DNA of 64,000 nt from the NCBI GenBank assembly GCA_029717555.1, contig JAMDHS010000036.1, positions 124,001 to 188,000 of the forward strand, given 5' to 3'. The notes under the pieces are model-generated. The model saw nothing but the letters and a program-made list of their open reading frames with translations, ran no database searches and had not been told where the DNA came from. Of this stretch, positions 4,212 through 61,400 are shown one piece after another. Each line of letters begins with the position of its first letter. Position 1 is the stretch's first letter. The DNA comes from Peribolospora baueri (taxonomy: Eukaryota). A program made the translations under genes and the position numbers.

Positions 4212-7072
4212 ATGCCTACGGTGACAAGATCCAAGCGCAGCCGCCCCGCGGCGACCACTTCTCCTGCAAAAAAGCAGAAGGTCGATGTCAAAGGCAAGGC
4301 CAAAGGCACCTCTTCTGCCGCCGCCGCCGTGCGAGCCGGGGAGGAGGCGGAAGGCGAGGTAGAGCAGAAGGTCACGGCAAAACGGCCTATCACTCGAGGG
4401 AAGGCATTGTCGGCAGTCTATGATGACGATGACACGAGCGAGGAGGAAGGCGACTCGGAGGTGGGCATGGATGGGGACGGAGACGGGGAAGGTCTGGAGA
4501 GCGATGACGGAGGCGAGGAGGAGAAAGATGAGGACGAGGAGATGCAAGATGAGGAGCAGCCGAAGCGAGACCCCAAAGGTGAAACTTGAAAGACGCAGTG
4601 GTTGGGGCTGGCTTGCGTGACTGTAGGCGTGGCTGACTTTCCCTGTCCTCTTCTTACCTCCCCACTCCTACAGCCAAACGAGAGGCCCGTGAAGCCGCCA
4701 AAGCTGCCCGGCAAGAGCGCAGAGCTGCCAAGCCCCATGCCTCTCTCATCGCCGAGGCCAAGCGTGTGTGGTCCTCTTTGCGACAGAAGGACATCAGTGC
4801 AAAGGAGAGGAAAGTGCATTTGGCGGAGATGATGGAGATCATCGGAGGAAGGGTGCAGGAGGTCGTGTTTAAGCATGACGTGGGTGACACGCTCGCACTC
4901 CTTCGTATCGAATTGCTTCAACGTGAAGTCTTAGAGCACGCACAGCTGATGCGATGGACTCGGCCTTCCTTTTTCTCCTACTATTTTTTTCATGTCGTAG
5001 GCTTCGCGCATCATCCAGTCTGTCGTAAAATGGGGAGGCAAGCCTGAGCGTGAGCAAGTCGCTTCTGAGCTCAACGGCAAGTATATTGAGCTTGTACAAG
5101 GAAAGTATAGCAAGGTGAGCCAGACTATAAACTGTTTCTGGAATGTGTGCTTCCAAGGCCTTTTTTTTTCTGCGTTGAGCTGTGCGGCTAACATGACTAA
5201 CTTGCCGGTTATTGCCGTTCCTCTTCTGCAGTTCCTCGTCGCCTCCATCCTCCGCCACACCCCTTCCGCCGTACCCATGATTCTGTCCGAATTTCAGGGC
5301 CATATCATCCGTCTCCTCCTTCACGCACATGCCTCGCCCATCGTCGCCGATACCTATGCCATCTTCGCCAACGCTGACGGTCGTCAAATGATGGTGCAAG
5401 ATTTCTGGGGCCCAGAATTTCGTCTTTTCGATAAAGAGGCTGGTGTAGCGGGGAAGAAGGGGGATGGCAAAGGAGAAGGGAGAAGGAGGTTGTTGGGTGA
5501 CGTGTTGGACGAGATGCCGGAGCCGAGAAGGAAAACGGTGTTGGAAAATGTGAGGGAGAGCTTGAGGAAGTTGTGGGACAATGAGTCAAAGAATGCCATC
5601 AGCTACGCTATCGTGCACAAGGGTGAGTGAAAAGGTTTCCGTTCATTTGCAGTCCTCTTCTAGCGATCGCTGCTGACACTTCCGGCCGCACTGTGCGACG
5701 CTACAGTCATGATGGACTACGCTACGTACGGTTCAGGAGACGATGCCGAGAAGCGTCAGAGAGACATGTTTGAGACGTGAGTGTGCAAATTTGTTGCATG
5801 CACACTGCACATCGCGGTGCTTCGTCACTCTCCCCATCCTGTCCCGCCCGCTCAAGGCTTGTTGTTTCCGCGCTTCCGACTCTTGCTTGTCAGCATTATC
5901 GACCAGCTCCCCGAGATCGTCCACACGCGCGATGGCTCTCAGCTAGCCCGCATGTTCCTCGCCGAGGGGAACGCTAAGGACAGGAAGCAGATCATCAAGG
6001 TTCTCAAGCCTCATTTGGATGCGCTCTGCAGGGACGAGCAGGCACAGCTGGTTCTGTTCACTGCGCTCGACGTCGTTGACGATACCAAGCTGATGGCTAA
6101 GAGCGTCATTCAGGTGGGTTCTCACCGGCCACTGGAAGGCGAGATCAGATTGTTGCATATTCACCCTCGTTTCTTGTTTGTTTCTTTCGTGCCCCTTCAG
6201 GAGCTTGCCCCGCTGTTCCCCTCTCTCTGTGCAGATAAGAACGGACGGAAGGTCCTCTTGTACCTCCTCTGCCCCCGTTCATCCCGTTATTTCACCCCAG
6301 CAACGACGCGTCTGCTGGCCGAGACGGACTCGATTCGGAGTCGAACGAGCAAAAAGGACCCGAAGGTCAGACAGGGGGAGGTGTTGGAGGCCGCAAGTCC
6401 TGGCCTGTTGAGGATGGTAGCGGGTGAGGGCGGTACCATGAGGCAGGAGGGCGAAGAAGTGGTGCTTCCGAGCGGCATCGAACTGTTCAGGGATACGGCC
6501 AGCTCATTGATAGTCCTGGAGACAATGTTGTACGCTCGAGGCGACAAAGCTCAGGCCATGTCCGCTCTTTTGGAGCCCGTCGGGGCGCCTTATCTGGATG
6601 ATAGCCAACGGGAAGCCGGTCAGGAGCATATCATGGATCTCTCCCATACCCAACGAAGTGAGTGTTCTTCCCATGCTTACGAACCTGCTATTTTTATTGG
6701 AGCTTAGCTCGTTCACCCTTTTCGCCCCGCTCTTCCCGCTTCACTTTTTTAGTCTACAAAACCCTCATACAAGGTGGCCACTTCGACATCAAAACGAAAA
6801 CGGTTCACGTCATCGACGCCGCCTTCTCGCTCTCCTTCGCCAAAGCCTTCCTGGCTGCTGCGGGGAAAGAGAATATCGGGGCGTTCGCAAAGGGCGGGGG
6901 AGCGTTCGTTGTCGTCGAGTTGATCGAGCGATTAAGGAAGGCTGGCGGGGAAGGGAAGAAGGAATTGGAGGAGATCAAGGGTCTGTTCGGTGGGAAGAAG
7001 ACCAGGGCAGAGATCGAGAAGGCAAAGCCGAAGGGCGGCGAGCTGTTGTTGAACAAGCTCGCTGAGCTGTGA
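4212..7072 (+). CDS. PUF6: Pumilio-homology/CPL domain nucleolar protein Puf6
   Basis: Acidic/basic N-terminus, then VWSSLRQK...KHDASRIIQSVVKWG, YSKFLV, HTRDGSQLARMFLAEGNAKDRKQIIK, LFTALDVVDDTKL, KKDPKVRQGE, YKTLIQGGHF. Multiple GT-AG introns. Confidence 0.92.
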
Positions 7073-20729: not shown

Positions 20730-22877
20730 ATGCCCAGACCAAACACCTTCAAAGAGCGCAAACGCCGACGCACCGCCGCCGGCGGGCGACCTGGTGGCGG
20801 CGCTCGCATCGACTATATCGACGAGACTGGCAGCGATGTCGAGCTGGGCGGCGGAGGTGCGGACCTTGCTTCCGGGGATTGGGGTGACATGGAGTGGTCG
20901 CAGGACGAGGACGAGGACGAGGAAGATCTGTGGAGGAAGGGGTTGGTGTCTTTTGGCGGCGGCGGCGGTGGTGCAAGGACGATTACCCGCTCCACCAACC
21001 GACAGTCACAGCAGCAGCGACGAGGCAACAAGCGAGACCGGCACCGGCACCACACCCAACAGCATCCAAGCGCCCCCTCGACGAACGAGGAGGAGGAGGC
21101 AGAAGCTCTCCGGGCGCGACGGCGCTCTGCGCTCGTTCAGCGAGCGTACGAAGCACGAGTCGTGCGAGATGACAAGCTGGCGGACGAGGTGATGCTCCCC
21201 ATGCCTTCTTACGCCGCCGACCCCCAGCAGGGGCGAGAGCGAGATCGAGACGGTGACGAGTGGCGAGAAGGCCTAGAGCATGTTGCAGGAGATGGAAGGG
21301 CGGCTATGGGTTTGGGCATGCACGGGCTCATCAAGTGGACCGGCGAGGTGGAGGGCAAGAGGGGGGAGACGGTGGAACTTTGGGTCGACAGGTGCGCTTT
21401 CCACCCTTCTGTTTGGTCATGTCAAAGGGATGCGGATACGTCCTCGTTTTCGGAACCACTTCAGCGAACCTTCTTTCTGCTCTCCGCCCTCGAACCGAGG
21501 CATTTCGATGTGGCCGAGTTGAGCGTATCATCTGTAATTCACCGCTTGTCTTCCCTTGGAGGCGCTCACCTTCTTGGAGGCCGCTGTCGCATCCATCTCT
21601 ACATACGCGGACGGGGAATGGTGTAGATGTCGTCTAGCGGACTGTTTCGAGCGAAGGGAAAGAAGAAGGGAGCAAGGGGAGGTACGGAGGGAGAAGGGCC
21701 AGCCTATCTGTCCCTCATGGCGTGACGACGGCGGCCACGCCAGGCCGGGCGAACGAACGCACCGGAGCCGCTCTCGCCCGCTCTCTACACTTCCTCCCAC
21801 TGAACTGCTCCTCTCCTCCTCCCCGCCGGAACTCGCAGGTTCGACGCCCTCCTCCTCCTCCCCACCGTGCCGGCCCCCCCGCCAGCGTCGGGCACGAAAG
21901 GAGAAGCCCTTCCTACGGAGACACAGGCGCAAGCTCTTCCTCCAGACCCTTCCTCGGAGCGAGGATGGTCGGACCTGGACAGCGACGCCGAGGACTTGTT
22001 CTTTATGGAAGATGACGAGGCGGAGGAGTACCTCCGGGACAGGAAGAGGAGGAGGCTACTGGACTTGAGACAACGGCGCGTCGAGGCCCTCGGCGCTGAA
22101 CGGGGCGACGAAGACGGGATGTGGGGAGGAAAGGAGGACGAGAAAAAGGACGAGGAGGAGGAGGACCCAAACGTGGTGAGTGCCGGTACAGGCGAACCTT
22201 TTTCCAATGCCATCTCACTCCATGGACTCTCGATCATCGCCGGCCCGGCCCAGCCCTGGCCTCGTCTCACGCTGACCGTCTTCATCGTTCCTTCTTCGTT
22301 TGCGACCCACCGATTCCGACGAGACCAGCCGTCAGAAGACCAGCTGACGCTGATGCGCGCGACAGCGCGTTCCATCCTCTCCGCTCCCAACACCTCGGTG
22401 GCGGAGATGCGCGTGCTCGTCAACCACGGCAGCGATCCCCGGTATGCGTTCCTTCGACGGGGGGCGCAGCAAAAGTGGAAGGAGGTGTGGGAGAGATTGA
22501 GGAAGGGAGAGGCGGTTGTCTTGAGGAAGAAAAAGGGCAAGGAAGAAGGGATGGAGGTGGTGGGCGAGCAGGAGGTGGAAGAGGAGGAGGATGACAAGGG
22601 CAAGGGCAAGAGCAAGGCTTTGCTGGTAGATTACGGGAGCGATAGCGATAGCGACAGCGGCGGACAGGGTGAGACGGACGTGGTCACGCACGGCCCGACG
22701 GCGTCGGCTCCCGCAGCTTCGACCTCAGCACCTGCCGCTCCGTCGACGACGACCCTCACACCAACAGCAGCAAGCCCTCGGGCGCCGCCGCCAGTGGACG
22801 ACGCAGAGAAGGCGAAGAGGCTAGCGAGGGCCAAGGAGTGGGCCAGGAAGCGCAAGGAGGCCAAAGCGTCGCTGTAG
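20730..22877 (+). CDS. Suppressor-of-white-apricot (SWAP/CLASRP)-like splicing regulator: DRY-EERY domain plus SURP-like domain
   Basis: AYEARVV...GLIKWTG...LWVDR|FDALLLL across intron 21392-21838, GWSDLDSDAEDLFF, then LMRATARSILSAPNTSVAEMRVLVNHGSDPRYAFLR, LLVDYGSDSDSD and KAKRLARAKEWARKRK. Confidence 0.7.
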
Positions 22878-23365: not shown

Positions 23366-24614
23366 TCAGTCGACGAGCTCAAGCATCAGCTCGCCTCGGA
23401 CGGCGTTGAATAGCTTCAGGCGCGCTCCCTCCTGTACGGGGCACAAAAGACAAGCAAGAAAGACGTGGGCGCGAGCCGACGAAACACGAAAGAGAAAGCG
23501 GTCCTATCAGTGAGGTCGAGCGAGGCAAGATGTCGGACTCGGCTCGACTCCACTCACCTTGACGGCTTGCTTCAACTCTGCCACGGTGAACTTGCCCTCA
23601 ACAAGCTCGCCCCTGTCCATCAGCTCCTCCCTCATCACTCCAGCGAGGAGCCCACAGTCCAAAGAAGGTGTGACCCATTTGAGCACCTTCTCTCCGCTCC
23701 TCACAGAGTCGTCCACCGGCATCTCCAAGGCGACGTTGCCGATGGAAGATTCAGTGACATAGGAGCTGGAATTGAACAGGATCACGTCAAAGAGCGCTGG
23801 TGGGGGTCCAAGACTGGCTCCTTTGGGGTCGATGATAGATGTTGATGACCAGTACGAGTTGAGAGATGGATAGAATGAGCCCTGGGCCTTGACCCAAAAC
23901 TCGCCAGGAACATCTCCTCTTCCGATAGCTCTGCTCACCATGCCTCGCCCTCGCATCATCGTACATGGCCCTGCGCGTCGTCTTGTGTGCTCCAAGCGCG
24001 CCTGGAGAGCCTGTCGGCCTGTCGTCCAGTTTGACCTTGTACAGAGCTGTGTGAGTGCGCAGTCAATTTTAGCCTGCTGCACATCTGCCCTGAGGCCAGC
24101 GAGGCATTTCATATCTGTTGCTTGCGGAGACATCCTCGTGACCGGCGCATGCTGATGGAAGAGCAAGGAAACACGATTCATACCCACTTGAATGCGCCTT
24201 TGGTTGCGTTGGGGGCAAGACCTGACTCGTAGCTTCCGGCCCACCCTTGCGAGGGATCGTGAGGCTGATCTGGTGCCGCACGAGTGTGTGGTGCGAAGGA
24301 ACTTGAAGAGATAAGAGAGCGAACAGAGTTTGACAGCAGTGAGGGCACTTCCTTCCTCTCACCTTCTGCTTGTGCTCCGTTCCAACGCTCTGCACACATC
24401 TCCTCAGCTCCTTCAACACCTCCTCTTCATCGATCCGTGCGCTTGCCCACTCTTCAGGGCTCTCCTTCCGGAAAGCGTCCAGCGACCGGTGGAGTCGCAT
24501 AAAATGCCGAGGCAGGAGAAAGAAAGTCTCTTCGACCATTGGACCGTTTGACTGAGATGGTGCCAAGGAAGGGTCGTACAGGATGGCCGTGAGCAGAGAG
24601 TAGTCGTTCTCCAC
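23366..24614 (-). CDS. ABZ2: Aminodeoxychorismate lyase (Abz2/PabC-like, aminotransferase class IV) portion
   Basis: [37 protein letters not shown] (catalytic Lys motif), FDVILFN...[36 protein letters not shown]. Confidence 0.85.
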
Positions 24615-26918
24615 GCCCTTCTCCTCGCATGCTGAAATCGGAGACGTTCCATTTTGGACATTGGACGAGATTACGGCCTGAAAAGAGAAAAAAAAAAGCG
24701 GGGCAAATCAGACGCAGTGATGCCATCAACACGCCGCTTCTCGGCTGTACCGAGGCCGCTTTAAGACGGCAATACGAAGATTCAACCCGACATCACTCAC
24801 GTATTTCCCGGTTCTCGTCCATGTACCTCCGCTCTCCTCCTCCAGTTGATGCAATTGCACCCTGCTCTTCAGTCCGACGCACACGTCCGCCTTGTTCGTC
24901 CTAAGAGAAAGCAAGGTGACCCCCTCCCATCTGTCTCTTCCTGCCGCGCGCTCGGAGGGAGAAGAGCCAATGGCGTCCAGGAAAGGAGTGAGGGGATCCC
25001 ATTTGGCGTCACTGACCAGTTTACGGTAGTTCAGGTCACCCTTGAAAATAACAAGCGAGGAGTTGCGGAGGTCCGAATGAAGATCCGGGGACACGGAGCG
25101 GAGGCGCCAATATGGGTTTTGGGTCTGTGGACAAGCGGAGGCGTACGATGGACATATGAGCTTGACCGTATGAGCTTATGCGCCGCCGAAACCACCCTAT
25201 TCTCAGGGCAGGAGCATCGGCGGCCGAACAACAGACGATCATCAGAGTGGAAAAGCAACTAACAGTCCAAAACTCATCCGCACGGACTTTGATCTTGCCC
25301 TGGTCGAAATAGACCCTCCACCTCTTTAGCAGTTCATCAATTACCTCCCTCTTCCCTTCCGGGCCAGTGCCAAACACGTTGGGGTCGGCGAGGAGGGAGA
25401 AAAGAGAGTCGATGTCGGAGGGGACCACGTCGGACACAAACCAAGAAAAGTTCTTGGGGTGAAGGAAGACTTGGGAGGCGTATCCCGCATCGAGAAGGTA
25501 CGAGGTAAGGATGAGGTCCGCATAGAGCTCAAATCCTGAGCATAATGGTCATATTGATGTGGCGAAGGGGAAGTCAAAAACTCAGTATATAGCGACCTTG
25601 GCTGCTGGTGGGAAAGAGAGAGGAAGCTAAAAGCAAAGCACAAGACCTCACCAGAGTTGTCCAATACAATATCGACCCTTCCGTCCCTCAAGTTCTTGAT
25701 GTGATTCCACACCTCGTCCACGTCGTTGACGATAACGTTCTTTTGCGAGGCTGCCAAGCCAAATTAAAGAGGGGTACTGTTCAAGCTCAATGACGTCACG
25801 CACACCAGAGGGGCCATGCTCCTCCAGTCACGATGGTCGCACGAAAGCATCCGCACGTCGCACCTTTGATGGCTTCCTTCCCTTGAAGCTTCTGGATGTC
25901 CTCGTAACTCAGGTTAGTGAGAAGAGAGAGGTCCGTCGCGTTTCCCCAGAGGGATATCTGGATCATCTCGTCCTGGGGGAACGCGACAAGTTCATATCAG
26001 CCGATAGAGCATGCTCGTCAGTCCAGTGTCAATATTGACAAACAAACAATGAACTCAAACGCACGAATATGAGCATCCTAGCTTCCTCCTCCCGCGTTTC
26101 TTTCCGTCCACTCTCGAGCTCCTTGACAAGTTCGATATACCTGGCCGCCAACTCCTCGATGGCAACCTTGGACGCGACGAAGGTGGAGTCCTTCTGACGC
26201 TTGAAAATGTCGTACGTCTTCCAGCGCGGTGATTTGGAATTTGAGAAAAAGGTGTGGAGGAGGCGGTAAAGATAGCATTCTGGACGATACCATACGACGG
26301 AGGAGGGCGTTAGGACAGTGGATTTCCTCCGATCAACCATGGCGAGGGGAGCAAAGCTCACCGGTGTACAGCCACGGGGAATCTATCCACTTGGCATCCT
26401 TAAGAAAGGCGAGCTCATCATTATAGGATGCGACGTCTCCACCGCCGTCCTCTGGGATGGGCCTGCACGCAAAAAAGAGTGAGTACCGACAGTAAATTCG
26501 GTGAGGTGGAAATTGGGCCAAGTATGCCGAAAGATGCACAAGCTCACTTTAGCTTCACGTTTCCTTTGATCGCCTCTACTACTAAGGAAATCTCTTCCGC
26601 AATCCTTTCTCCTTCCTCTTTCTCCTCTTCTGTCAACGAAGCGTCCTCGGCGAGCGTCTTGAGCACGTCCTCCCGAGCGCCGTTCACGATCTTCGGCCAG
26701 CGGTCTTTGGCGGTCTCGTGCGCGAAGGTGCCCGGTACGCCCAGATGGCACCAGGCTTTAAAGAGAGGATGAGTCAAGAGACAGAGGCTTAGAGCGCGGG
26801 CATGAGGCATTTGCAAGGCTCAGTAGACCCTGCTTGATCGAAGTAGTTGCGACCCAACATGGCGCAGGAACTCACGAACATCGCAGTCGTCGGGCGAGTA
26901 TTTGCGCAGCTCGGTCAT
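23366..26918 (-). CDS. Predicted fusion protein: DUF89/ARMT1-like damage-control phosphatase + 4-amino-4-deoxychorismate lyase (class IV PLP enzyme)
   Basis: One spliced frame runs from ATG 26918 to TGA 23366. The junction intron 24678-24800 joins [43 protein letters not shown] with no stop. Confidence 0.75.
24666..26918 (-). CDS. ARMT1: DUF89/ARMT1 (YMR027W-like) metal-dependent phosphatase portion
   Basis: [104 protein letters not shown]. Confidence 0.92.
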
Positions 26919-39504: not shown

Positions 39505-40923
39505 GGGTGCTCCTCTCCGGAATAGGTGGTCGACCAGTTAGTCTCTCGTTCTCGTTCCCCCTCTTCTTCTTTTCCTTCCTATTGTCCCGGCTGGTCATGC
39601 TGTCGGAGGAGAGGCGGGAAGATGGATGGAGTGGAGTTGTCATGCCGTCCGTTGGCCGTCTCTGTCCGATCGATCCTTCGCTTCCAACTCACCTGTCCTC
39701 ACGCGTGTCTGCCACCCCGCCAGCATGGACTGACTGACTCGTCTGTTTGAGCTAGCTATCCTTCACTTCGTCTCTGTCCTCCCCCACGGCCGTGCCTACA
39801 TCTTATGGCTTCGCCTTTGTTATCTGTACGATCGAGTTCTTGCTGCTATTGCCACTATTTCCATGAGGCGGCCCCGAAGGTTTGTGCGCTGTTGGGTCGA
39901 GCGCAGGTCCGTTCCTGTCATTGGTTGTTCCCCCAATTGACCCGCGAGCGTTTATGAACAGGGGCCGTTCGTTTGACTGGTCAGTTGGGGGCCGTTCGGA
40001 CCAAGTGTTGCGTTGTCATGCCGAGGATGGCAACGCTACGAGAGACGAGCTATTTAGTCAGCAGAGATCGAGGGGATCAGGTCGAACTCATTTTCGCCTC
40101 CTTTTGGAACGCTCGCGGGCGGGGCATGTCCCATCTCTCGTACCTCCCAGGATGATGCCTCGTTACGCTTGCGTCTCCGAGACGGCCGCTCGCTGCCTGC
40201 GACCTGCTCACGCGTTCCGACGCGGCGACAACGACCAATGGACGGACGGAGGGGATGACCCGCCATCTTGGTCCTCGCTCCTCGCTCCTGCTCCTCGCCC
40301 CTCAGCCACTTCACTTCGTTTCACCCGCCTCTGCCTTGTCCCGGCGGTGCCCGTCGAGCAACGTGCTAACGAATACAATACAATACCGCCCATTCCATCG
40401 CTTACCGTCCACTTTCGACGGACCCACGTCGTGTTAGCCCGTCGTGTCGTCCGTCGTCCGCGACGTCGAACAGCGTTCGGACGGACGCCAAGGCACACAC
40501 ACTGAGCATTCGCCCGCCATTCAGCCCGTTCTCTCGCCTGTGTGTGTGCGTGCACTCAAGGGAAGATTGAGTGCGTGTGTGTTTGTGTGTGAGTGAGAGA
40601 AAGATATAGTAGACAATGATCCTACTTCCTAGACGACCTGGACGCTTCATTCTCCTCCACCTCCCGATTCACACCCTCTTTCCATTCGCTCCTCCTCGAT
40701 CCTGCCTTTCTCTCCTTTCACACTTGCGTTGACGTCCTATCGTTCCCATCCCCGTCGTGACCCTGGGACGTGGGCGTCCTCCCTCTTCTCTGCCCACTCC
40801 GACGTTTTCGGTCCTGCTCGGTTGCTGGTACAATCGCTCGGGCCACGAGGGACGCAAGCCCACAACTTTCCTTTCCTTTGACAGCCTCGAGCCGGACTCG
40901 GCAGGTCACCTTCCTTCGTCAAG

Positions 40924-43900
40924 ATGGGTCAAGCACCCTCCTCCCCCGACTTCCGCGCCTACGCTTATGAATCTTACCCTACCCCAGGCGACAAGGATCG
41001 CCTCGCTCCTCCCGCTCAGGCGGACACTCTCAAGGAAGGCAGATTCAGTCTTCGCAATCGCCGACGCGCCAACTCGCAGCCCTCGCGAACCGTCATCAGC
41101 GCGCCCATCGGGCCTCTGAAGCATGTCGATGGCGCAGGTGGACCGGGCAGCTCGGTGTTCGGAGTCACCGTAAGCGATGTGGCTCGCCAGAGGTCGAAGC
41201 GGCGCGGGCCGGAGGTCGGAGGGGCTGTGGACGCGATGGAGGAGATCCACGACGCCGGCGACGAGGCCCGGTCGCCCGCGGCGGAGGGAAGGCACAGTCT
41301 CAGTGGCGCGATCCTGCGCCCGTTCGCGACGGCTGAGCCGTCGCGTGCTTACAGCTCCTTCGGCTTCCGACCCGGCATCAGCCCGTTCGAACGAGACAGC
41401 CGATTCCAGAATGCGAGTAACGTCTTCGCCAGTGTCCAAGGGCAACACCGACCGTGGGCGGATGACGAGAATGGTCATGCCTCAGCTTGGCGGTCAGAGG
41501 GAGAAAACAAGAGGGCGACAGCCTCCGCGGGTGGTGTCAGTGTCGGGCGGATGCGCGCTTTGCGGCTGAAGCTGGCTTCGCACGCCAAAGAGCAAGGCAA
41601 AGAAGGCGGACGGACCAGGACGTCCACCGCCGCAAATGGTGACGATGCGCTCCCCTTCCCGGACACCGCGGGCGATGGTCAGCCCCGCATCCACAAGGCA
41701 GCCTTGGCGAGCATGGACACCCTCGTCTCGCCCGACGGCGCTCCTTCGAGCCTGGCGGCGGCCTCGGTATCATCATTAGGCTACCGTCATCCTCGCACCA
41801 AGAGTCGTGCAAAGGCCTCATCGACCTTCTCTTTCACCTCGTCCTCCACCGCTCATCCTCGCGCCGTCTCTGCGCCGATCGTGGACGCTTCGAAAAAAAG
41901 CGTTCGGGCGCGCTCCTGCACAGCCGCTCAAGTCGCCCCAGAGGCAAAGAACGAGGAGCAGAAGGAGCATGGCAAGCGTCGCGGCAACCGTCTCCGCCGC
42001 CCCGCTTCCCGCCGTCCTCCGTCCGCGATCGCGGAGGGTCGGAACAGGCCTGCGACGCAGGAGGCTGGGCGGCAAGACGAGGCGCATCGGTGGAACGAGT
42101 ACCTGGCAAGGATGACCGGCCGGGCGCAAGCGAACGAAGGCAGGGACGTGGTGGCCAGGCCGCACTCTGATGGCTGCCCGGCCGGCGTGCTCACTCCGGA
42201 GAGCTTTCAACGACCGAGGCGGATGCCGCACAAGTCCATTCCCCAATGGCTCGGCTCGGTGCAAGGTCGCACGGGCCAGGATGGGGGTCACGTGGTCCAT
42301 AGCATGACCTGTCGGACACTCGATTCGTTTCGCTCGCACTCAGACGCGGGCGAGGATGGTGGAGAGCCGGATGACGACGAGCGTTGGGTCGACGTCAGGC
42401 GGCGAGACGAGCAAGACGACCACGACCACGACCACGACCAACAAGCCGATGCGTCGACGCCAACATCTCGGACTCGCAGATCCCTCCTCCCAGCCCTCGA
42501 TCTCTCCGCGGCTGGCCCGCTCGGCTCCAAGATATTCGACGGCATCAGCAGCTCGCCGGTCTCGTCGCCCCGGCGCAAATCAGGAGCAGGGGGAACGCCT
42601 CGACGGCGCCGCGCACGCTCCGCATCTCCCGCAGACACACCGGGCAGAAAGCCGAGTCCACCGTGCGAGCTCGAGGAGTGGATGCTCCTCGCTGGACAGC
42701 AGGCGCGCTTCGCAAGCCAAGGCGAGGACCGCAGGACGTCTGTGTTCGTGCCCTCCTTGCTCGACGTGCCCATCCTCCCCTTCGTCGCCGCCGCTCTCGC
42801 AGGCACGGACGGCATGACCGACACCGTGACCAGCACCAAGTCGGACGACCTCTCGCCCGCCGAGGATCCGCCTGTCGGGCCTGTTCCGCCGCCTCGGCCG
42901 AAGTGGCGAAGAGGGAACAGCTCTTCTTCGATAAACAGCCTTTCTCATGCTGCCGCCGGAGTCAAGGCCCAAGCTCTCGCCCAAACGCAAGCCCTTCGGC
43001 TGATCGCGCACGATCGGCACTCGCTCAGCACCATCGCGAGTAGTCGCAACGCCAGTCGGCAGGGAAGCAGCAACGACATCGTTGACCAGAGTCTCAGCAC
43101 TACCGCCGCTAGCACCATCACGTCGTCCGCTCAAAGAACGACTTTGGCGCAGTACGGCCTTGGATCGGATTTCAACGTGGGTGGGAGAGGCCCGCTGCGC
43201 GTTGTCAATGGTACGGACGGCGAGGGATGTCCATCGCCCGCCGAGCCCGTCATCCAGACGACGGCGAGCCAGAGCATCTTCGGCTCACAGTCCGGTCGCA
43301 CCATGAATACGGTCACCAGCGGAACGGCATCTGGAGCGAGCACCCTTGCGATGTCGAGGAACAGCAGCTATAGCGCCGCGCCCGATCTGCTCAACTGGAA
43401 CGACGAAACCGCCGCTTCGGTCGAGACTAGCGCCCAGGATGGGCACGATGGGAATCACCTGAGCCCCCCGACGACATCTAGAAGCCTCAGTGCCAGTTCG
43501 AGGGGACGTCGTTCCAATGCTTCCACTCGCCCTTCTGCGGCATCCGCCACTCAGCCTTCGGCTGGGAAAGGCTCTAGGGTGAGAAGGAAACCAGTGCCGT
43601 TGTTCGAAGAGGGCCAGAAGGACAAAAATGCGGCCGCACAGCCCGGCACTGGCGTTCTTGCTCTGTCCGACTACCCGCCCACCGATATCGAGCAGCCCCC
43701 CGTAACCACCATCCACCCTTCAACGACACCCACATCGCCCATCTCCTCCGTCTCCATCCCACCCCCTCTCAGCCCGCCTCCTGCACAAGCGTCTCCACCT
43801 CCCCAGCTCCGTTCTCCATCTCGCAAATCCAGGCCTCTACCCGTGCCACCCACCTCTTCTGCCCGGGGCCCCGCTTCTCACTACAAGGTCTCCGCACCGC

Positions 43901-46008
43901 CGCCGCTTCCATCGTCGACACCGTGGCTGTTCGTCAACGAGGGACTCCAGCCCAAGCCGCTCTCGCCCGTTCCTGCCTCTCCCAAATCGTCAGCGGGGTC
44001 GGCTGGCAAGGACATTGACGGCAAGGACGGGAATGCCACCGTCGCCGCAGCCAAAGGCGGGAGGAGCGAAGACGAGGATGAGGCTTCTTCGGATTTGTTT
44101 CCAGCGCCTCCGACAAGATCTGATACGTCGAACGGGGGGCGATCGAGGCCTACATCAGGCCATGGGCCGCTCGCTCACGTCGAAGCTGGCCTCAATGCCT
44201 ACTTTGACGCCTTGGTGAGCGGCCGTGCGCAAAGCCCACTGGGTAAAGGCGCTGCTCGTCGTGATGGTAGATTAGATGTTCGCCCGACCGCACGAGGGCA
44301 GACGACGGAGGCTGCGCCTTCGGCTCGCCGCTCCCTGGCGATCTCTGCCGGCTCGGAGGAAGATGAAGAAGAAGAGCCGCCGGAGGAGGTGCAGGTTGTC
44401 GTCCCTCAGAGCGTGGCCGTCCTCGGCTACGCCATGCCAGTGATGGAGACATTTGGGCAGCGCAGGAGGAGCGCAAAAGAGGAGGAAAGGGAGGAGGCAT
44501 TGAGGAGGGAGAGAGACAAACAGGAGAAGGCGACGTGGGAAAGGGCGAGGAAGAAGTCGCTCGGTTCCAGAGAAGACGCCATCGAGGCTATCCGAGCTGA
44601 CATGGAGGCGCGCGGGGAAGACGGTGGCAGTCGACTTGCGTTCGGCTTGCACGGTCGGCAACCTGCTGGCGTATTCTTCCACCCTTTCCATCCAGACCAC
44701 CCTTCTCTCTCCGTCCCGGACATACCAGCCATGCGTGCCATGCCCAGCATTCCCACCGAACTCAACCTCGCATCATCATCGCCTTCCGCTTTCTTCGTCA
44801 ACGCAGGCAAGACTGCCCTTCCTCCACCCCCTCGGAGTAGAAAAAGGTCAAACAGTACTACGAAGCAGCGCTCGGTCTCGTCCCCCGGTCAAAAGTCGGA
44901 AGGTCGCAGTGGTCAAAAACGGCGTTCTCGGTCCGAACGGAGCCGCGCTCGCCGCCACTCCGAGCCGAGGACGAATAGTTCTTCAACCACTGGGTCTCAT
45001 CGAGGAAGCTCGTCCGGCTTTGGCGATTCAGCGGAAGAGGGCGGAAGAGATGCCACTGAGAGCTCTGGTTCAGCAACGAAAACGACCTATCCTGGTCATC
45101 CTTCGGGTCGCCGGCGTCCGTCCGCCCATATCAGGTCGCCTGCATCTCACGGCACCTCAATCCCTTCGCCGGCGCCGCCAAAACTGCCCAACATGTCCTC
45201 TCTCCCGCCTTCTTCATCATTTCCTCTCTCCTCTCAACGCGGCGAAAACGCGCTCCAGCGACACGTTGCCGCCGCGACCGTCTCCAAACCGCCCTCCAAA
45301 CACGGCAAAAGCGGTTTTACCAAGGGAGATATCCTCGAGTGGCGTAGGACGAGCGACGCCAATCCCTCCGCGGTAGCGGCGGGGATGATGGTTTCGGCTG
45401 GCGGTAGTAGTCTGACAGCTCAGGACCGAGTGGTTGCGACGCGATTGCCAGGTTCGACCTGGACGACTGTCAACGCTGAATGTTCCAACAACCAGCTCTC
45501 GGCGATCCCGCGACGAGACAGTGAGCCCTCGCTGTCCTCGCTCTTTGCCCCTGTTCCGGTCCAATCCCATAACGACTATAACGATGGCCAGCAGCACGAG
45601 GACGACCGCCGCCGCCGCCGCTGCAGCAAGAGCGTCGACGTCTCTTGGGGAGCACTCTCACAGTCGCAACCGCAACCGCAACCGCAACCGCAACCTTCCG
45701 CGCAGCCACAACCACATCTACAAATTTCGGCGCAGCCACCTACGTCATCGCCGACTTTGAAGAACGGCTGGACGCCTTTCTTCGACAGCTCAGATCCAAG
45801 GGTCCCCTTCCAAGGAGGCCAGCCCTATCCCCTGCACAATGTGAACGTCAAGAAGAAGCGGTTAGAGTGGGAGGCCAAGGCCAAGGCGGGTGGCATCAGC
45901 GCTGGAGCTAGAGCTGGAGCTTCCGCTCGCTCTACGGAGCCTTGGTCGACACCGCACCTACCTTTCTCTGCCACTATCGGTCAAGGCGTGCCGAGGAGGG
46001 TGACCTGA
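40924..46008 (+). CDS. Hypothetical 1694-aa intronless, S/P/R-rich, probably disordered protein
   Basis: 5.1-kb open frame with ATG, low-complexity composition, a short charged coil and no recognisable catalytic domain. Confidence 0.7.
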   Translation: MGQAPSSPDFRAYAYESYPTPGDKDRLAPPAQADTLKEGRFSLRNRRRANSQPSRTVISAPIGPLKHVDGAGGPGSSVFGVTVSDVARQRSKRRGPEVGGAVDAMEEIHDAGDEARSPAAEGRHSLSGAILRPFATAEPSRAYSSFGFRPGISPFERDSRFQNASNVFASVQGQHRPWADDENGHASAWRSEGENKRATASAGGVSVGRMRALRLKLASHAKEQGKEGGRTRTSTAANGDDALPFPDTAGDGQPRIHKAALASMDTLVSPDGAPSSLAAASVSSLGYRHPRTKSRAKASSTFSFTSSSTAHPRAVSAPIVDASKKSVRARSCTAAQVAPEAKNEEQKEHGKRRGNRLRRPASRRPPSAIAEGRNRPATQEAGRQDEAHRWNEYLARMTGRAQANEGRDVVARPHSDGCPAGVLTPESFQRPRRMPHKSIPQWLGSVQGRTGQDGGHVVHSMTCRTLDSFRSHSDAGEDGGEPDDDERWVDVRRRDEQDDHDHDHDQQADASTPTSRTRRSLLPALDLSAAGPLGSKIFDGISSSPVSSPRRKSGAGGTPRRRRARSASPADTPGRKPSPPCELEEWMLLAGQQARFASQGEDRRTSVFVPSLLDVPILPFVAAALAGTDGMTDTVTSTKSDDLSPAEDPPVGPVPPPRPKWRRGNSSSSINSLSHAAAGVKAQALAQTQALRLIAHDRHSLSTIASSRNASRQGSSNDIVDQSLSTTAASTITSSAQRTTLAQYGLGSDFNVGGRGPLRVVNGTDGEGCPSPAEPVIQTTASQSIFGSQSGRTMNTVTSGTASGASTLAMSRNSSYSAAPDLLNWNDETAASVETSAQDGHDGNHLSPPTTSRSLSASSRGRRSNASTRPSAASATQPSAGKGSRVRRKPVPLFEEGQKDKNAAAQPGTGVLALSDYPPTDIEQPPVTTIHPSTTPTSPISSVSIPPPLSPPPAQASPPPQLRSPSRKSRPLPVPPTSSARGPASHYKVSAPPPLPSSTPWLFVNEGLQPKPLSPVPASPKSSAGSAGKDIDGKDGNATVAAAKGGRSEDEDEASSDLFPAPPTRSDTSNGGRSRPTSGHGPLAHVEAGLNAYFDALVSGRAQSPLGKGAARRDGRLDVRPTARGQTTEAAPSARRSLAISAGSEEDEEEEPPEEVQVVVPQSVAVLGYAMPVMETFGQRRRSAKEEEREEALRRERDKQEKATWERARKKSLGSREDAIEAIRADMEARGEDGGSRLAFGLHGRQPAGVFFHPFHPDHPSLSVPDIPAMRAMPSIPTELNLASSSPSAFFVNAGKTALPPPPRSRKRSNSTTKQRSVSSPGQKSEGRSGQKRRSRSERSRARRHSEPRTNSSSTTGSHRGSSSGFGDSAEEGGRDATESSGSATKTTYPGHPSGRRRPSAHIRSPASHGTSIPSPAPPKLPNMSSLPPSSSFPLSSQRGENALQRHVAAATVSKPPSKHGKSGFTKGDILEWRRTSDANPSAVAAGMMVSAGGSSLTAQDRVVATRLPGSTWTTVNAECSNNQLSAIPRRDSEPSLSSLFAPVPVQSHNDYNDGQQHEDDRRRRRCSKSVDVSWGALSQSQPQPQPQPQPSAQPQPHLQISAQPPTSSPTLKNGWTPFFDSSDPRVPFQGGQPYPLHNVNVKKKRLEWEAKAKAGGISAGARAGASARSTEPWSTPHLPFSATIGQGVPRRVT

Positions 46009-58469: not shown

Positions 58470-61400
58470 TCAAGCCGACGCCGAGCCGGACTTATCGCCC
58501 TGCCCTCCCGCCGCGGCCGTCGGCGTCTGAGCGCGACTGACCTCACCAGACTCCTTTTCTGTGCCTGCTGCGCTCGACGGTCCTGCGCCCGCACCCGCAC
58601 CGCTGGCAGATTTGGATGGCGGAAACGTGGACGTGGACGTAGCCGTCGCGGCAGCGGCCGCCGCCTCGGCGTCCTCGTTATCGTCATCCAGCTCGTCTAC
58701 CTCTCCGGCCTCTTTTTCGTCTTCCTCTGTCGGCGCCGCGGGCCCGTTCCTGCCAGCCGCCGTCGCCGCCGGCACAGTGGGCAGAGGTGCATCGACGCCA
58801 GCGGCCGCCGACGAGGAGGACGCGGGCGGAGCACCGGGAGACCGAGGAGGAGATCGGCTCCTAGCTCGCTTTGACGCGTCGTCCCTGTGCCCTTGAGCCG
58901 GGCTCGGGCCTCTCTCGTCGTCCCGTGCTCGCTTTCCGAGCGCACCGGGAACGTCAGCGTCTGACCGGCCGCCACCGGAGCGGGGTCGAGGCGCGGCGGC
59001 GGTGGCGCTTCTCGAAGGCGAGCTATGAGGAGCACTGGAGCCACCGTTGACTTCGGCCCGAGCAGATGCAGCGCCGGCGAGACCCATGAGAGCGTCGGCG
59101 GCGCCGTCGTCATAGTCCTCGTCGACGAGCCTAGAAGGAGGGGGCCCGGGTCTGGTGTAGGACGACGACGTCCTGGGGCTCGCCGGAGGCGACTTGGCGC
59201 GAGAGGGCGATGAGCCAGTCGAGGGTGGCCTGTTTTCCTCTTTCCTACCCGCCGCTCCCGACGTCGAAGATTTGCGATCGCTGCCCGAGCTCAAAGGAGC
59301 GCTCCGAGCATGGGCAGCGCTCGGCGAGCCAGACGTCGCCGCGGCGGTGGCACCCTGTTCATCCACCCGCTCTTTCCTCTTCCTCCCATTCCCGTTTCCG
59401 CTCCCGTTCTCGAAGCCGATCGGACTGGCAGAGACGCGAGCCCTCGCTCCCGACCCGGCCTCCTCCTTTCCCTTCGCACCGCCGCCACCACCACCACCAC
59501 CACCACTAGCCCTTCCCCTTGTGGGCCTGCCCTTGGTCGCCGGCTGAGGAGTGAGCGCGCCGCTGTCGGACGAAGGGGGTGGTGCGGCGGTAGCCGCGGG
59601 CGGAGGGTGCATCGCGCCGCTTCCGCTTTCGCCGCCTTCTTGTCTGGCCCACTCGACCGTTCCCCTCTCTCGCTCAGGCGCCTCGCCCGCGTACACCTGC
59701 TTTCGAGAAGGAGTAGAGGAAGAGGGAGGCGGCGGCGGCGGCGGCGCGCCGTAATAGCCACCTTGGGTCGAGCTTTCAGGGCCCCACGGCCGGTCGTTAC
59801 GCGGATCGTACCGGCGGTCGTGCTCGTAAGGCGAAGCGTCGTATATGTGTCGACCGTGCGGCGGAGGCGGAGGGTAGCCGCCAGGCGAAGGCGGCCTGCC
59901 TCCGGACATGCGCCTACTCTCGCGCGACGGTGACTGGGGGCCGCCGTGTGCGCTCGGCGGCCGACCGTACGCAGCGGGCGGAGGGTAGTGTTGGCCCGGT
60001 GACGCGCCGGTCCGAGCCTGACCTTCGACGGCAGCCCGGCTCCTCCCCCAATCTCTCCGATCTCGCTCGTCGTAGACTGGATGGTGTGAAGGAGGCGGGC
60101 CATACCTGCCATCAGGAGGATACGGGGTATAGCCGTGCTGAGACGGGTACGGAGGAGGGTAGCCCTGCTCGTGCTTCGTCCTGGGCGAGGTGCGCGGCGA
60201 GGGCGAAGGGCCATACCGACGGTCGTGTGGTCCGGGGCCCGGCGAGGGACCGCGCTCATGGGGTGGAAGCGCGTGCGGAGGCGGACCGGTAGGTTCATGT
60301 CTCAACGGTGGCGGTGGAGGCGGCGGCGGCGAAGGACGACCATAGTGGCCCGGCGGCGGCGCATGCTCGACCTCCATAGGAGCGAGAGGAGTATGAGGCG
60401 GCGGCTTGGTCCCGCGGTCATCAATGTTGGCGATCTGTGGCGGCTGACCGCGGAACGGATCTTGACCAGCGGGCGAGGGCGGGCGCGGTGGCAGTCCTGG
60501 ACCTGGGAGCTGTCGAGGACCATCGCCACCTTCGCCGATGGGCGGCGGCGGCGGCGGCGGTGGCGGTCCGCGCGCACCTCCTCCCGGCCCTTCCTGAGGC
60601 GGATAGCCTCCTGGGGCCGAAGGCCCTCCGGCCGGAGCGGAGGCTGGGGCCCCAGAAAATTGCGACGGAGGTCCGGCAACACCTTGAGTGGCATACGCCG
60701 TAGGATGAACGTCCTGCGGCATGGGAGCGCTCGGAACCTGACCTCCGGTCTGCTGTGCGTTCCTCAAGAGGGCCAACCTTTGCTTGATGCTGTGATTGTT
60801 CGGGTCGAGGTCGGCGGCACGCTGGTAAGCGTCGATGGCGTCGTTGACCTGGTTGTTGCAGCTCTCGTAGAGCGAGCCGAGGTCGAACCAGACTTCGGAA
60901 ATGTAAGGGTTGAGCCGAATGGCGCGCGAGTAGGCGTCCAAGGCGTCTCGGAACTGGTTGATTTGGTAATAAAGCACACCGATGGAGCACCAGAACGTCG
61001 GGTTTCGCCCGTCCCGGTAGACGGCTTGCTGGTACGCCTCGTACGCCTTCTTGTAGTTCTGACCGGCCATGTAAGAGCGACCGAGAAGATACCAGCTCTG
61101 CGCATCGTTGGCATCTGGGAAACCGGGAGAGAAGGAAACCGGATAAGTAAGGCGGTGGCCGCTCACCATTCGCCTCGTTCGACCCACTCACCCGACTCCA
61201 AGCTCTTGGTCAAGTACTGTATCGCCAACTCCTGGTTGGCGAAACTGGCGCCATTCTGGTGGTAGAGCCAGCCAAGCTGCTGCAAGACTTTGGCGTGCGT
61301 GGGGTTTTCCGCAAGCACGCGCTCATAGGCGTCTTTCGCCAAGTTGTACTGGAAGACGGGCGACCGCATACATGATCAGCATCACATCGGTCGCTGCTGT

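Follow-up and report, generated by a model that had tools for sequence, protein, structure and literature searches.

In the DUF89 family, a fusion to an enzyme of the coenzyme A (CoA) pathway is listed in Table 4 of PMC4921024 among the fusions that led to functional discovery, in this case the assignment of DUF89 as a phosphatase. The same source names the fusion of aminodeoxychorismate (ADC) synthase to ADC lyase (PabB–PabC) as a known one that is sensible for substrate channelling. The subfamily III DUF89 proteins, as defined in PMC9062747, are ~380–480 amino acids (aa) long and carry an RTxK motif ~40–50 residues from the C terminus. The present study concerns a gene of fungal type on the minus strand of a stretch of 64,000 nucleotides (nt) from Peribolospora baueri (contig JAMDHS010000036.1, positions 124,001 to 188,000), the whole of which we refer to as the window. 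In this gene, a DUF89/ARMT1 metabolite-damage phosphatase domain of subfamily III and a class IV pyridoxal phosphate (PLP) domain resembling ADC lyase share one open reading frame. Both families are well known, but the architecture that pairs them is new. Our analyses suggest, with a probability of about 70%, that the gene is a genuine in-frame fusion that would be expressed as a bifunctional protein of 734 residues.

The gene model is as follows:

23366..26918, minus strand: whole fused gene, assembled by coordinates, with 13 exons, 12 introns and 734 codons plus a TGA stop
26918-26876, 26755-26548, 26462-26362, 26279-26065, 25972-25864, 25750-25652, 25535-25264 and 25124-24801, minus strand: exons 1–8, the DUF89/ARMT1 subfamily III phosphatase domain, aa 1–457
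24677-24363, 24269-24188, 24046-23939, 23820-23558 and 23431-23366, minus strand: exons 9–13, with AVISS, the linker and the start of the lyase in exon 9 and the remainder of the lyase in exons 10–13

The exons total 2205 nt and form a single open frame that closes with the TGA at 23368-23366 on the minus strand. Every intron (12/12) is bounded by GT..AG, with sizes between 82 and 141 nt, and when the product was searched by tblastn back onto the 64-kb window the fused-gene locus was the sole match. The original prediction had described the sequence features of this locus with coordinates and motifs that proved right to within a base, small corrections such as the linker length aside.

The N-terminal 462 residues appear, as judged by alignment, to be a complete and catalytically intact subfamily III DUF89 phosphatase. 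From its first residue to its GKY-AVISS end, this part aligns with 18 full-length fungal DUF89 proteins at 37–47% identity over 423–452 positions. Pfam scans were made exon by exon and not on the spliced domains, with exons 1–3, 5, and 6 outside the scan; PF01937 was recovered on exon 4 (27.9 bits), exon 7 (50.7 bits), and exon 8 (64 bits) at a cutoff of 25. Single-exon phmmer searches of the PDB gave matches to Schizosaccharomyces pombe Duf89/Duf8901, to yeast YMR027W, and to one further DUF89 entry. In the phmmer alignments to the PDB chains of Duf8901/Duf89, the equivalents of the Duf8901 active-site residues Asn192, Asp195, Asp248, Asn249, Asp286, Asp363, and Lys401 are identical in all seven cases; according to PMC9062747, these residues bind metal, bind the aspartyl-phosphate mimic, or are needed for activity. 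By likeness to Duf8901, the domain would be a metal-dependent phosphatase that acts via an aspartyl-phosphate intermediate. Two of its landmarks are the following:

25656..25661, minus strand: Asp-Asn pair in VLDNS, equivalent to Duf8901 Asp248 (the phospho-acceptor nucleophile) and Asn249, from alignment to positions 249-250 of 7t7k_B, a chain whose numbering is the native numbering plus one
24891..24902, minus strand: RTNK, the RTxK motif of subfamily III, whose Lys is equivalent to Duf8901 Lys401, from alignment to the S. pombe Duf89 chain

Measured over its full length, the protein departs from the subfamily III definition, since it has 734 aa and its RTNK lies ~307 aa from the C terminus. 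The DUF89-homologous part, in contrast, ends ~35 aa past RTNK, and the misfit in size is thus due to the fusion and not to the domain itself.

The two domains meet across intron 8 and the first part of exon 9, where three elements follow one another:

24678..24800, minus strand: intron 8, 123 nt, lying between GKY and AVISS, with GTGAGT as the donor, TTTTCAG as the acceptor, and between them a CTGAT site and ten consecutive T
24663..24677, minus strand: AVISS, the last conserved DUF89 strand and the first five codons of exon 9, aligned with AV[IV][SQ]F of homologues
24606..24662, minus strand: linker of ~19 codons with neither a stop nor an ATG, at the place where relatives have their stop codon

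Exon 8 ends in GGG AAA TAC at 24801, and exon 9 opens at 24677 with AVISS and no stop. Because the join of 24801 to 24677 restores GKY-AVIS exactly as it is found in relatives, the splice is backed by homology. Among the 18 aligned fungal proteins, G[KRS][YF]-A[VL]xxF runs uninterrupted in 16, and 15 of those 16 end no more than ~10 residues later; the exceptions in the set are P0083, which diverges, P0115, which stops short, and P0100, which has a long tail. The last of these, a DUF89 protein of Cetraspora pellucida, continues for ~100 residues beyond AVIQF, unlike the other aligned homologues. A set of 80 metagenome DUF89 loci, retrieved with exon 8 as the query, gave the same picture: 72 have the end motif in frame and then a stop 2–30 residues on (median 5), and the eight exceptions comprise truncated, interrupted, and diverged loci. 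The C terminus of S. pombe Duf89 lies nine residues past GKY. In the fused gene, by comparison, the frame stays open for 272 codons beyond AVISS. Both the end of the last DUF89 exon, with a canonical intron that restores GKY-AVIS, and the passage of the frame into the lyase with no stop had been claimed in the original prediction, and both were found as described, with all of the intron signals present; the linker, given there as ~17 aa, measures ~19 residues (24662-24606). Two other endings for the DUF89 frame were tried and rejected, namely a 43-nt intron within the linker and a splice from the intron 8 donor to the 24632 acceptor in the DUF89 frame, each of which loses the conserved VIS/AVIS and enters an unrelated frame.

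An open linker is not in itself rare: we estimate the chance of 19 open codons at ~0.4, to be multiplied by 1/3 for the shared frame. The fused frame is favored, however, by its codon usage and by the spacing of the conserved elements on its two sides. With codon log-odds derived from four other long frames of the window, the linker scores +0.10 per codon in the fused frame vs -0.19 and -0.14 in the other two, and the whole coding sequence gives +0.17. The last DUF89 strand and the first lyase strand are ~57 nt apart within one exon, and there is thus no room between them for a stop, untranslated regions, a promoter, and a start codon. This spacing also bears on the idea that the DUF89 stop and the lyase start were both lost through an error in base calling or assembly, or through a deletion confined to the strain, in which case the fused product would be non-functional or absent from the species at large. 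Such an artefact or very recent lesion would be in keeping with the facts that the sequence was examined in a single copy and that the architecture occurs in no sampled relative. However, no single error would suffice to produce the ~57-nt interval, which is too short to have held two untranslated regions and a promoter in addition to the stop and start codons. Moreover, both domains are intact, their catalytic residues are conserved, the introns are clean, and the linker has coding-like codon usage. A scan of the window detected no sign of misassembly at the junction in the form of an N, a repeat, or a break in composition, and the sequence around the junction occurs nowhere else in the window. 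We regard an origin of this kind as very unlikely.

The C-terminal part is, by its sequence, a complete short fold-type IV PLP enzyme of the Abz2/PabC-like type. Its main landmarks are the following:

23366..24605, minus strand: class IV (fold-type IV) PLP domain, ADC-lyase-like, consisting of the rest of exon 9 and exons 10–13, from PF01063 and the alignment to P0121
24573..24602, minus strand: first lyase strand (10 residues), which by eye is like FELFETMLLED, the opening stretch of the P0121 class IV domain immediately behind PabB
23982..23984, minus strand: Lys of HKTT, presumed to bind PLP, aligned to HKTT of P0121

PF01063 scores 43.2 bits on exon 12 (cutoff 28.5) and is weak on exon 9 (E 0.099); with PF01937 on the DUF89 exons, the profile check that had been proposed for the two domains thus gave both families above cutoff, per exon. 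A search with exon 12 among longer proteins returned two matches, P0121 and P0122, both of which are PabB–PabC fusions with PF00425 and PF01063 (the domains of P0121 come from our scan, those of P0122 were precomputed). Alignment of the spliced lyase exons with the class IV half of P0121 gave E 6e-17, at 31% identity over 226 residues; it crosses all four exon junctions and matches HKTT and TESSI(G/A)N. As this alignment spans all five exons, it validates the model of exons 9–13. The Lys of HKTT is presumably the Schiff-base (PLP) lysine of class IV enzymes. The motif FNAVRG and a further lyase motif of 14 residues are also present, with eight residues and then the TGA after FNAVRG.

The more distant matches raise the question of which reaction this domain would catalyze. 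It could be another fold-type IV enzyme, for example an aminotransferase or a lyase that acts on some other substrate, and the fusion would then have nothing to do with p-aminobenzoate (pABA) or folate. On the NCBIfam side, exons 11 and 12 are nearest to the PRK07546 models, which NCBI names just "hypothetical protein", and the pabC equivalogs appear with E 0.06–0.11, far under their cutoffs; both results would suit such an enzyme. In the PDB, exon 11 had no match, and exon 12 matched 3qqm (Mlr3007) with E 1.2e-5, yeast Abz2 (4k6n) with E 0.0064, a weak match on one exon, and a branched-chain aminotransferase-like entry with 0.12. The order of the last two nevertheless favors Abz2 over the aminotransferase, and the nearest full-domain relatives that were found, P0121 and P0122, are fused to the chorismate-binding PabB. 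We consider a different activity unlikely; the domain would most likely cleave 4-amino-4-deoxychorismate to pABA and pyruvate.

The lyase has no evident start of its own. Its frame is open upstream only to 24707, where it is closed by the TGA at 24710-24708, and between that stop and the DYSLL codons at 24605 it contains no ATG. In-frame Met codons begin with the one at 24539-24537, which lies downstream of both the first lyase strand and the start of the Pfam profile. The scan back to the TGA thus bears out the earlier claim that no in-frame ATG precedes the first conserved lyase motif. Because the DUF89 part needs its conserved end and the lyase is without its own start, the fused frame is the only simple reading of the DNA. 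The fusion proposed in the original prediction is therefore supported at the DNA level, where both domains are complete, the splice is backed by homology, and a lyase start is lacking; that a fused product is expressed we infer from these features.

Several observations weigh against the fusion, in this and the next paragraph. One set concerns the route by which the lyase would be made. The fused frame might exist in the DNA and the lyase yet be produced mainly, or also, as a separate protein from an internal start in exon 8 or intron 8 in conjunction with an alternative mini-exon or acceptor, and the DUF89 protein might then come from an mRNA that retains intron 8. A script listed six hypothetical combinations, each of an ATG, a donor, and an acceptor, through which the lyase frame could be entered ahead of its first strand. 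One of the six would pair an out-of-frame ATG at 24822, within exon 8, with the GTGAGT donor at 24800 and a TTTCAG acceptor whose intron end is 24632. Intron 8 has a length that is a multiple of three and contains in-frame stops, and its retention would end DUF89 cleanly, with a stop 24 codons after GKY. Such an ending would, however, lose the AVIS strand that is kept by 72 of the 80 relatives. In addition, the pyrimidine tract is much stronger at the regular acceptor, which uses the first AG past CTGAT, four of the six combinations depend on weak donors (GTCTGA or GTCCAA), and a few such combinations per 600 nt are expected by chance. We judge a separately made lyase to be distinctly unlikely. 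Exon 9, which holds the junction, is on its own weakly conserved and without a significant homologue: a word-indexed search scored none of 89 candidates, a search of the PDB returned nothing at E up to 10, and NCBIfam likewise gave nothing. All Atlas matches to exon 9 have scores below 0.9 and serve as leads only. In a full HMMER search of 1.84 billion representatives, its lone match was P0123, a protein of 754 aa with tandem repeats in which 13 stretches were matched, and we rejected it as spurious.

The other set is the lack of a second example in the samples searched. Among the best 120 of 504 DUF89 proteins at E ≤ 0.001, PF01937 is the only domain in 119 and occurs with PF10256 in one, and PF01063 was found in none (0/120). 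Likewise, tblastn at E ≤ 0.01 with the lyase of the window and the class IV domain of P0121 detected no class IV homologue in the flanks of the 80 DUF89 loci, 56 of which extend 1.5 kb or more beyond the DUF89 end, and in an Atlas search with exon 8 all of the 30 cluster matches carry PF01937 only. The sampled relatives are 40–60% identical in exon 8 (52–60% for the best), and the lineage to which the gene belongs is outside the sample. For this reason, failure to find the fusion elsewhere is a poor guide to whether it is conserved in the lineage, close relatives not being among the sequences compared. The one two-domain protein among the best 120 of 504, P0068 (1020 aa, from a Claussenomyces metagenome-assembled genome, with PF10256 and PF01937), is possibly a merged gene model. 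A literature search, with the survey of DUF89 fusions and clusters by Huang et al. 2016 outside its scope, found no paper that joins the DUF89 family with ADC lyase. The terms "DUF89" and "aminodeoxychorismate lyase" co-occur in PMC4921024, where they are unrelated to each other in the passages that name them. No paper was found that brings together ARMT1, gene fusion, and folate, and none among the matches listed has ABZ2 alongside a DUF89 name (YMR027W/ARMT1/C6orf211). The statement in the original prediction that this fusion was unfamiliar is consistent with these database and literature searches, which did not reach close relatives.

The fusion, if genuine, would be a single transcription unit from which twelve ordinary introns are removed to yield an mRNA for a two-domain protein. 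It could have originated from two co-oriented neighboring genes through loss of the stop codon, the intergenic DNA, and the start codon that once separated them, and the lyase would now rely on the DUF89 promoter and start codon. The two active sites would most likely work independently, so that the fusion would do no more than couple their expression one to one. A lineage-restricted joining of neighboring genes with independent activities is the most likely account of the architecture. The phosphatase might instead be tied metabolically to the chemistry of pABA, folate, or PLP, but we hold such a link to be doubtful, and it is unsupported by the data here; no conserved adjacency of DUF89 to a class IV gene was seen among the 80 related loci. 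In its "Rosetta stone" form, which we would call a long shot, the DUF89 domain would act within or next to pABA/folate or PLP metabolism and might dispose of phosphorylated side-products or damaged B6 vitamers that would otherwise poison the PLP lyase, and the fusion would be conserved in a fungal lineage that has not been sampled.

The fusion would matter in either case. The in vivo substrates of the subfamily III DUF89 enzymes are unsettled, and a second, different fusion to a vitamin-pathway enzyme would provide a testable hint as to what these enzymes protect. The one earlier fusion of DUF89, to pantothenate kinase, pointed to a role in CoA metabolism, as recorded in Table 4 of PMC4921024. 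If, on the other hand, the joining is a lineage-specific accident, it would offer a natural case of two unrelated enzymes that tolerate being joined end to end, and a warning for gene callers, which might split or truncate the fused gene.

Elsewhere in the window, four further frames were recorded:

21804-22877, plus strand: convergent neighbor frame of 357 codons, rich in acidic and Ala/Pro/Ser runs, with no Pfam match, its end ~490 nt from the stop of the fused gene
40882-46008, plus strand: 1708 codons without a stop, much longer than any other frame of the window; no Pfam family matched at E ≤ 0.001
58470-61187, minus strand: frame of 905 codons in which several TPR repeats lie close to the N terminus (TPR_1 E 1.2e-17)
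5781-6707, plus strand: frame with a CPL (NUC119) domain (E 4.1e-29)

Among the known systems, the PabB–PabC fusions represented by P0121 and P0122 have a similarly placed class IV domain: there too it is C-terminal and follows straight after a short linker, and it is with one of these proteins that the present lyase shares 31% identity over 226 residues. The partner is different, however. In the PabB–PabC fusions it is the preceding enzyme of the pathway (PF00425), whereas here it is a phosphatase without a known role in that pathway; the upstream part of the fused gene is DUF89, and PF00425, present in P0121, was not seen in it. With the short class IV enzymes of the Abz2 (4k6n) and PRK07546/Mlr3007 (3qqm) type, the C-terminal part has in common the fold-type IV domain, HKTT, TESSIGN, and the GLLxG loop. 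Those enzymes differ in that they stand alone with a start of their own, and similarity to them is low (E 0.0064 for exon 12 to Abz2, with exons 9 and 11 lacking a PDB match).

To the stand-alone subfamily III DUF89 proteins (S. pombe Duf89/Duf8901, Saccharomyces cerevisiae YMR027W, and human ARMT1/C6orf211), the N-terminal part corresponds end to end, with the same domain, active-site residues, RTxK, and GKY-AVIS strand. These proteins, at ~380–480 aa, end a few residues past AVISF, in contrast to the fused protein, which has 272 more after AVISS. The PANK4-type fusion, finally, is similar in principle, in that DUF89 is joined to an enzyme of a B-vitamin/cofactor pathway. In PANK4, the kinase domain is N-terminal of DUF89. 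In the protein described here, the alignment with fungal DUF89 proteins that stand alone begins at residue 1, and no pantothenate kinase precedes the domain; the partner in this case is a PLP lyase, and it lies at the C-terminal side of the DUF89 domain.

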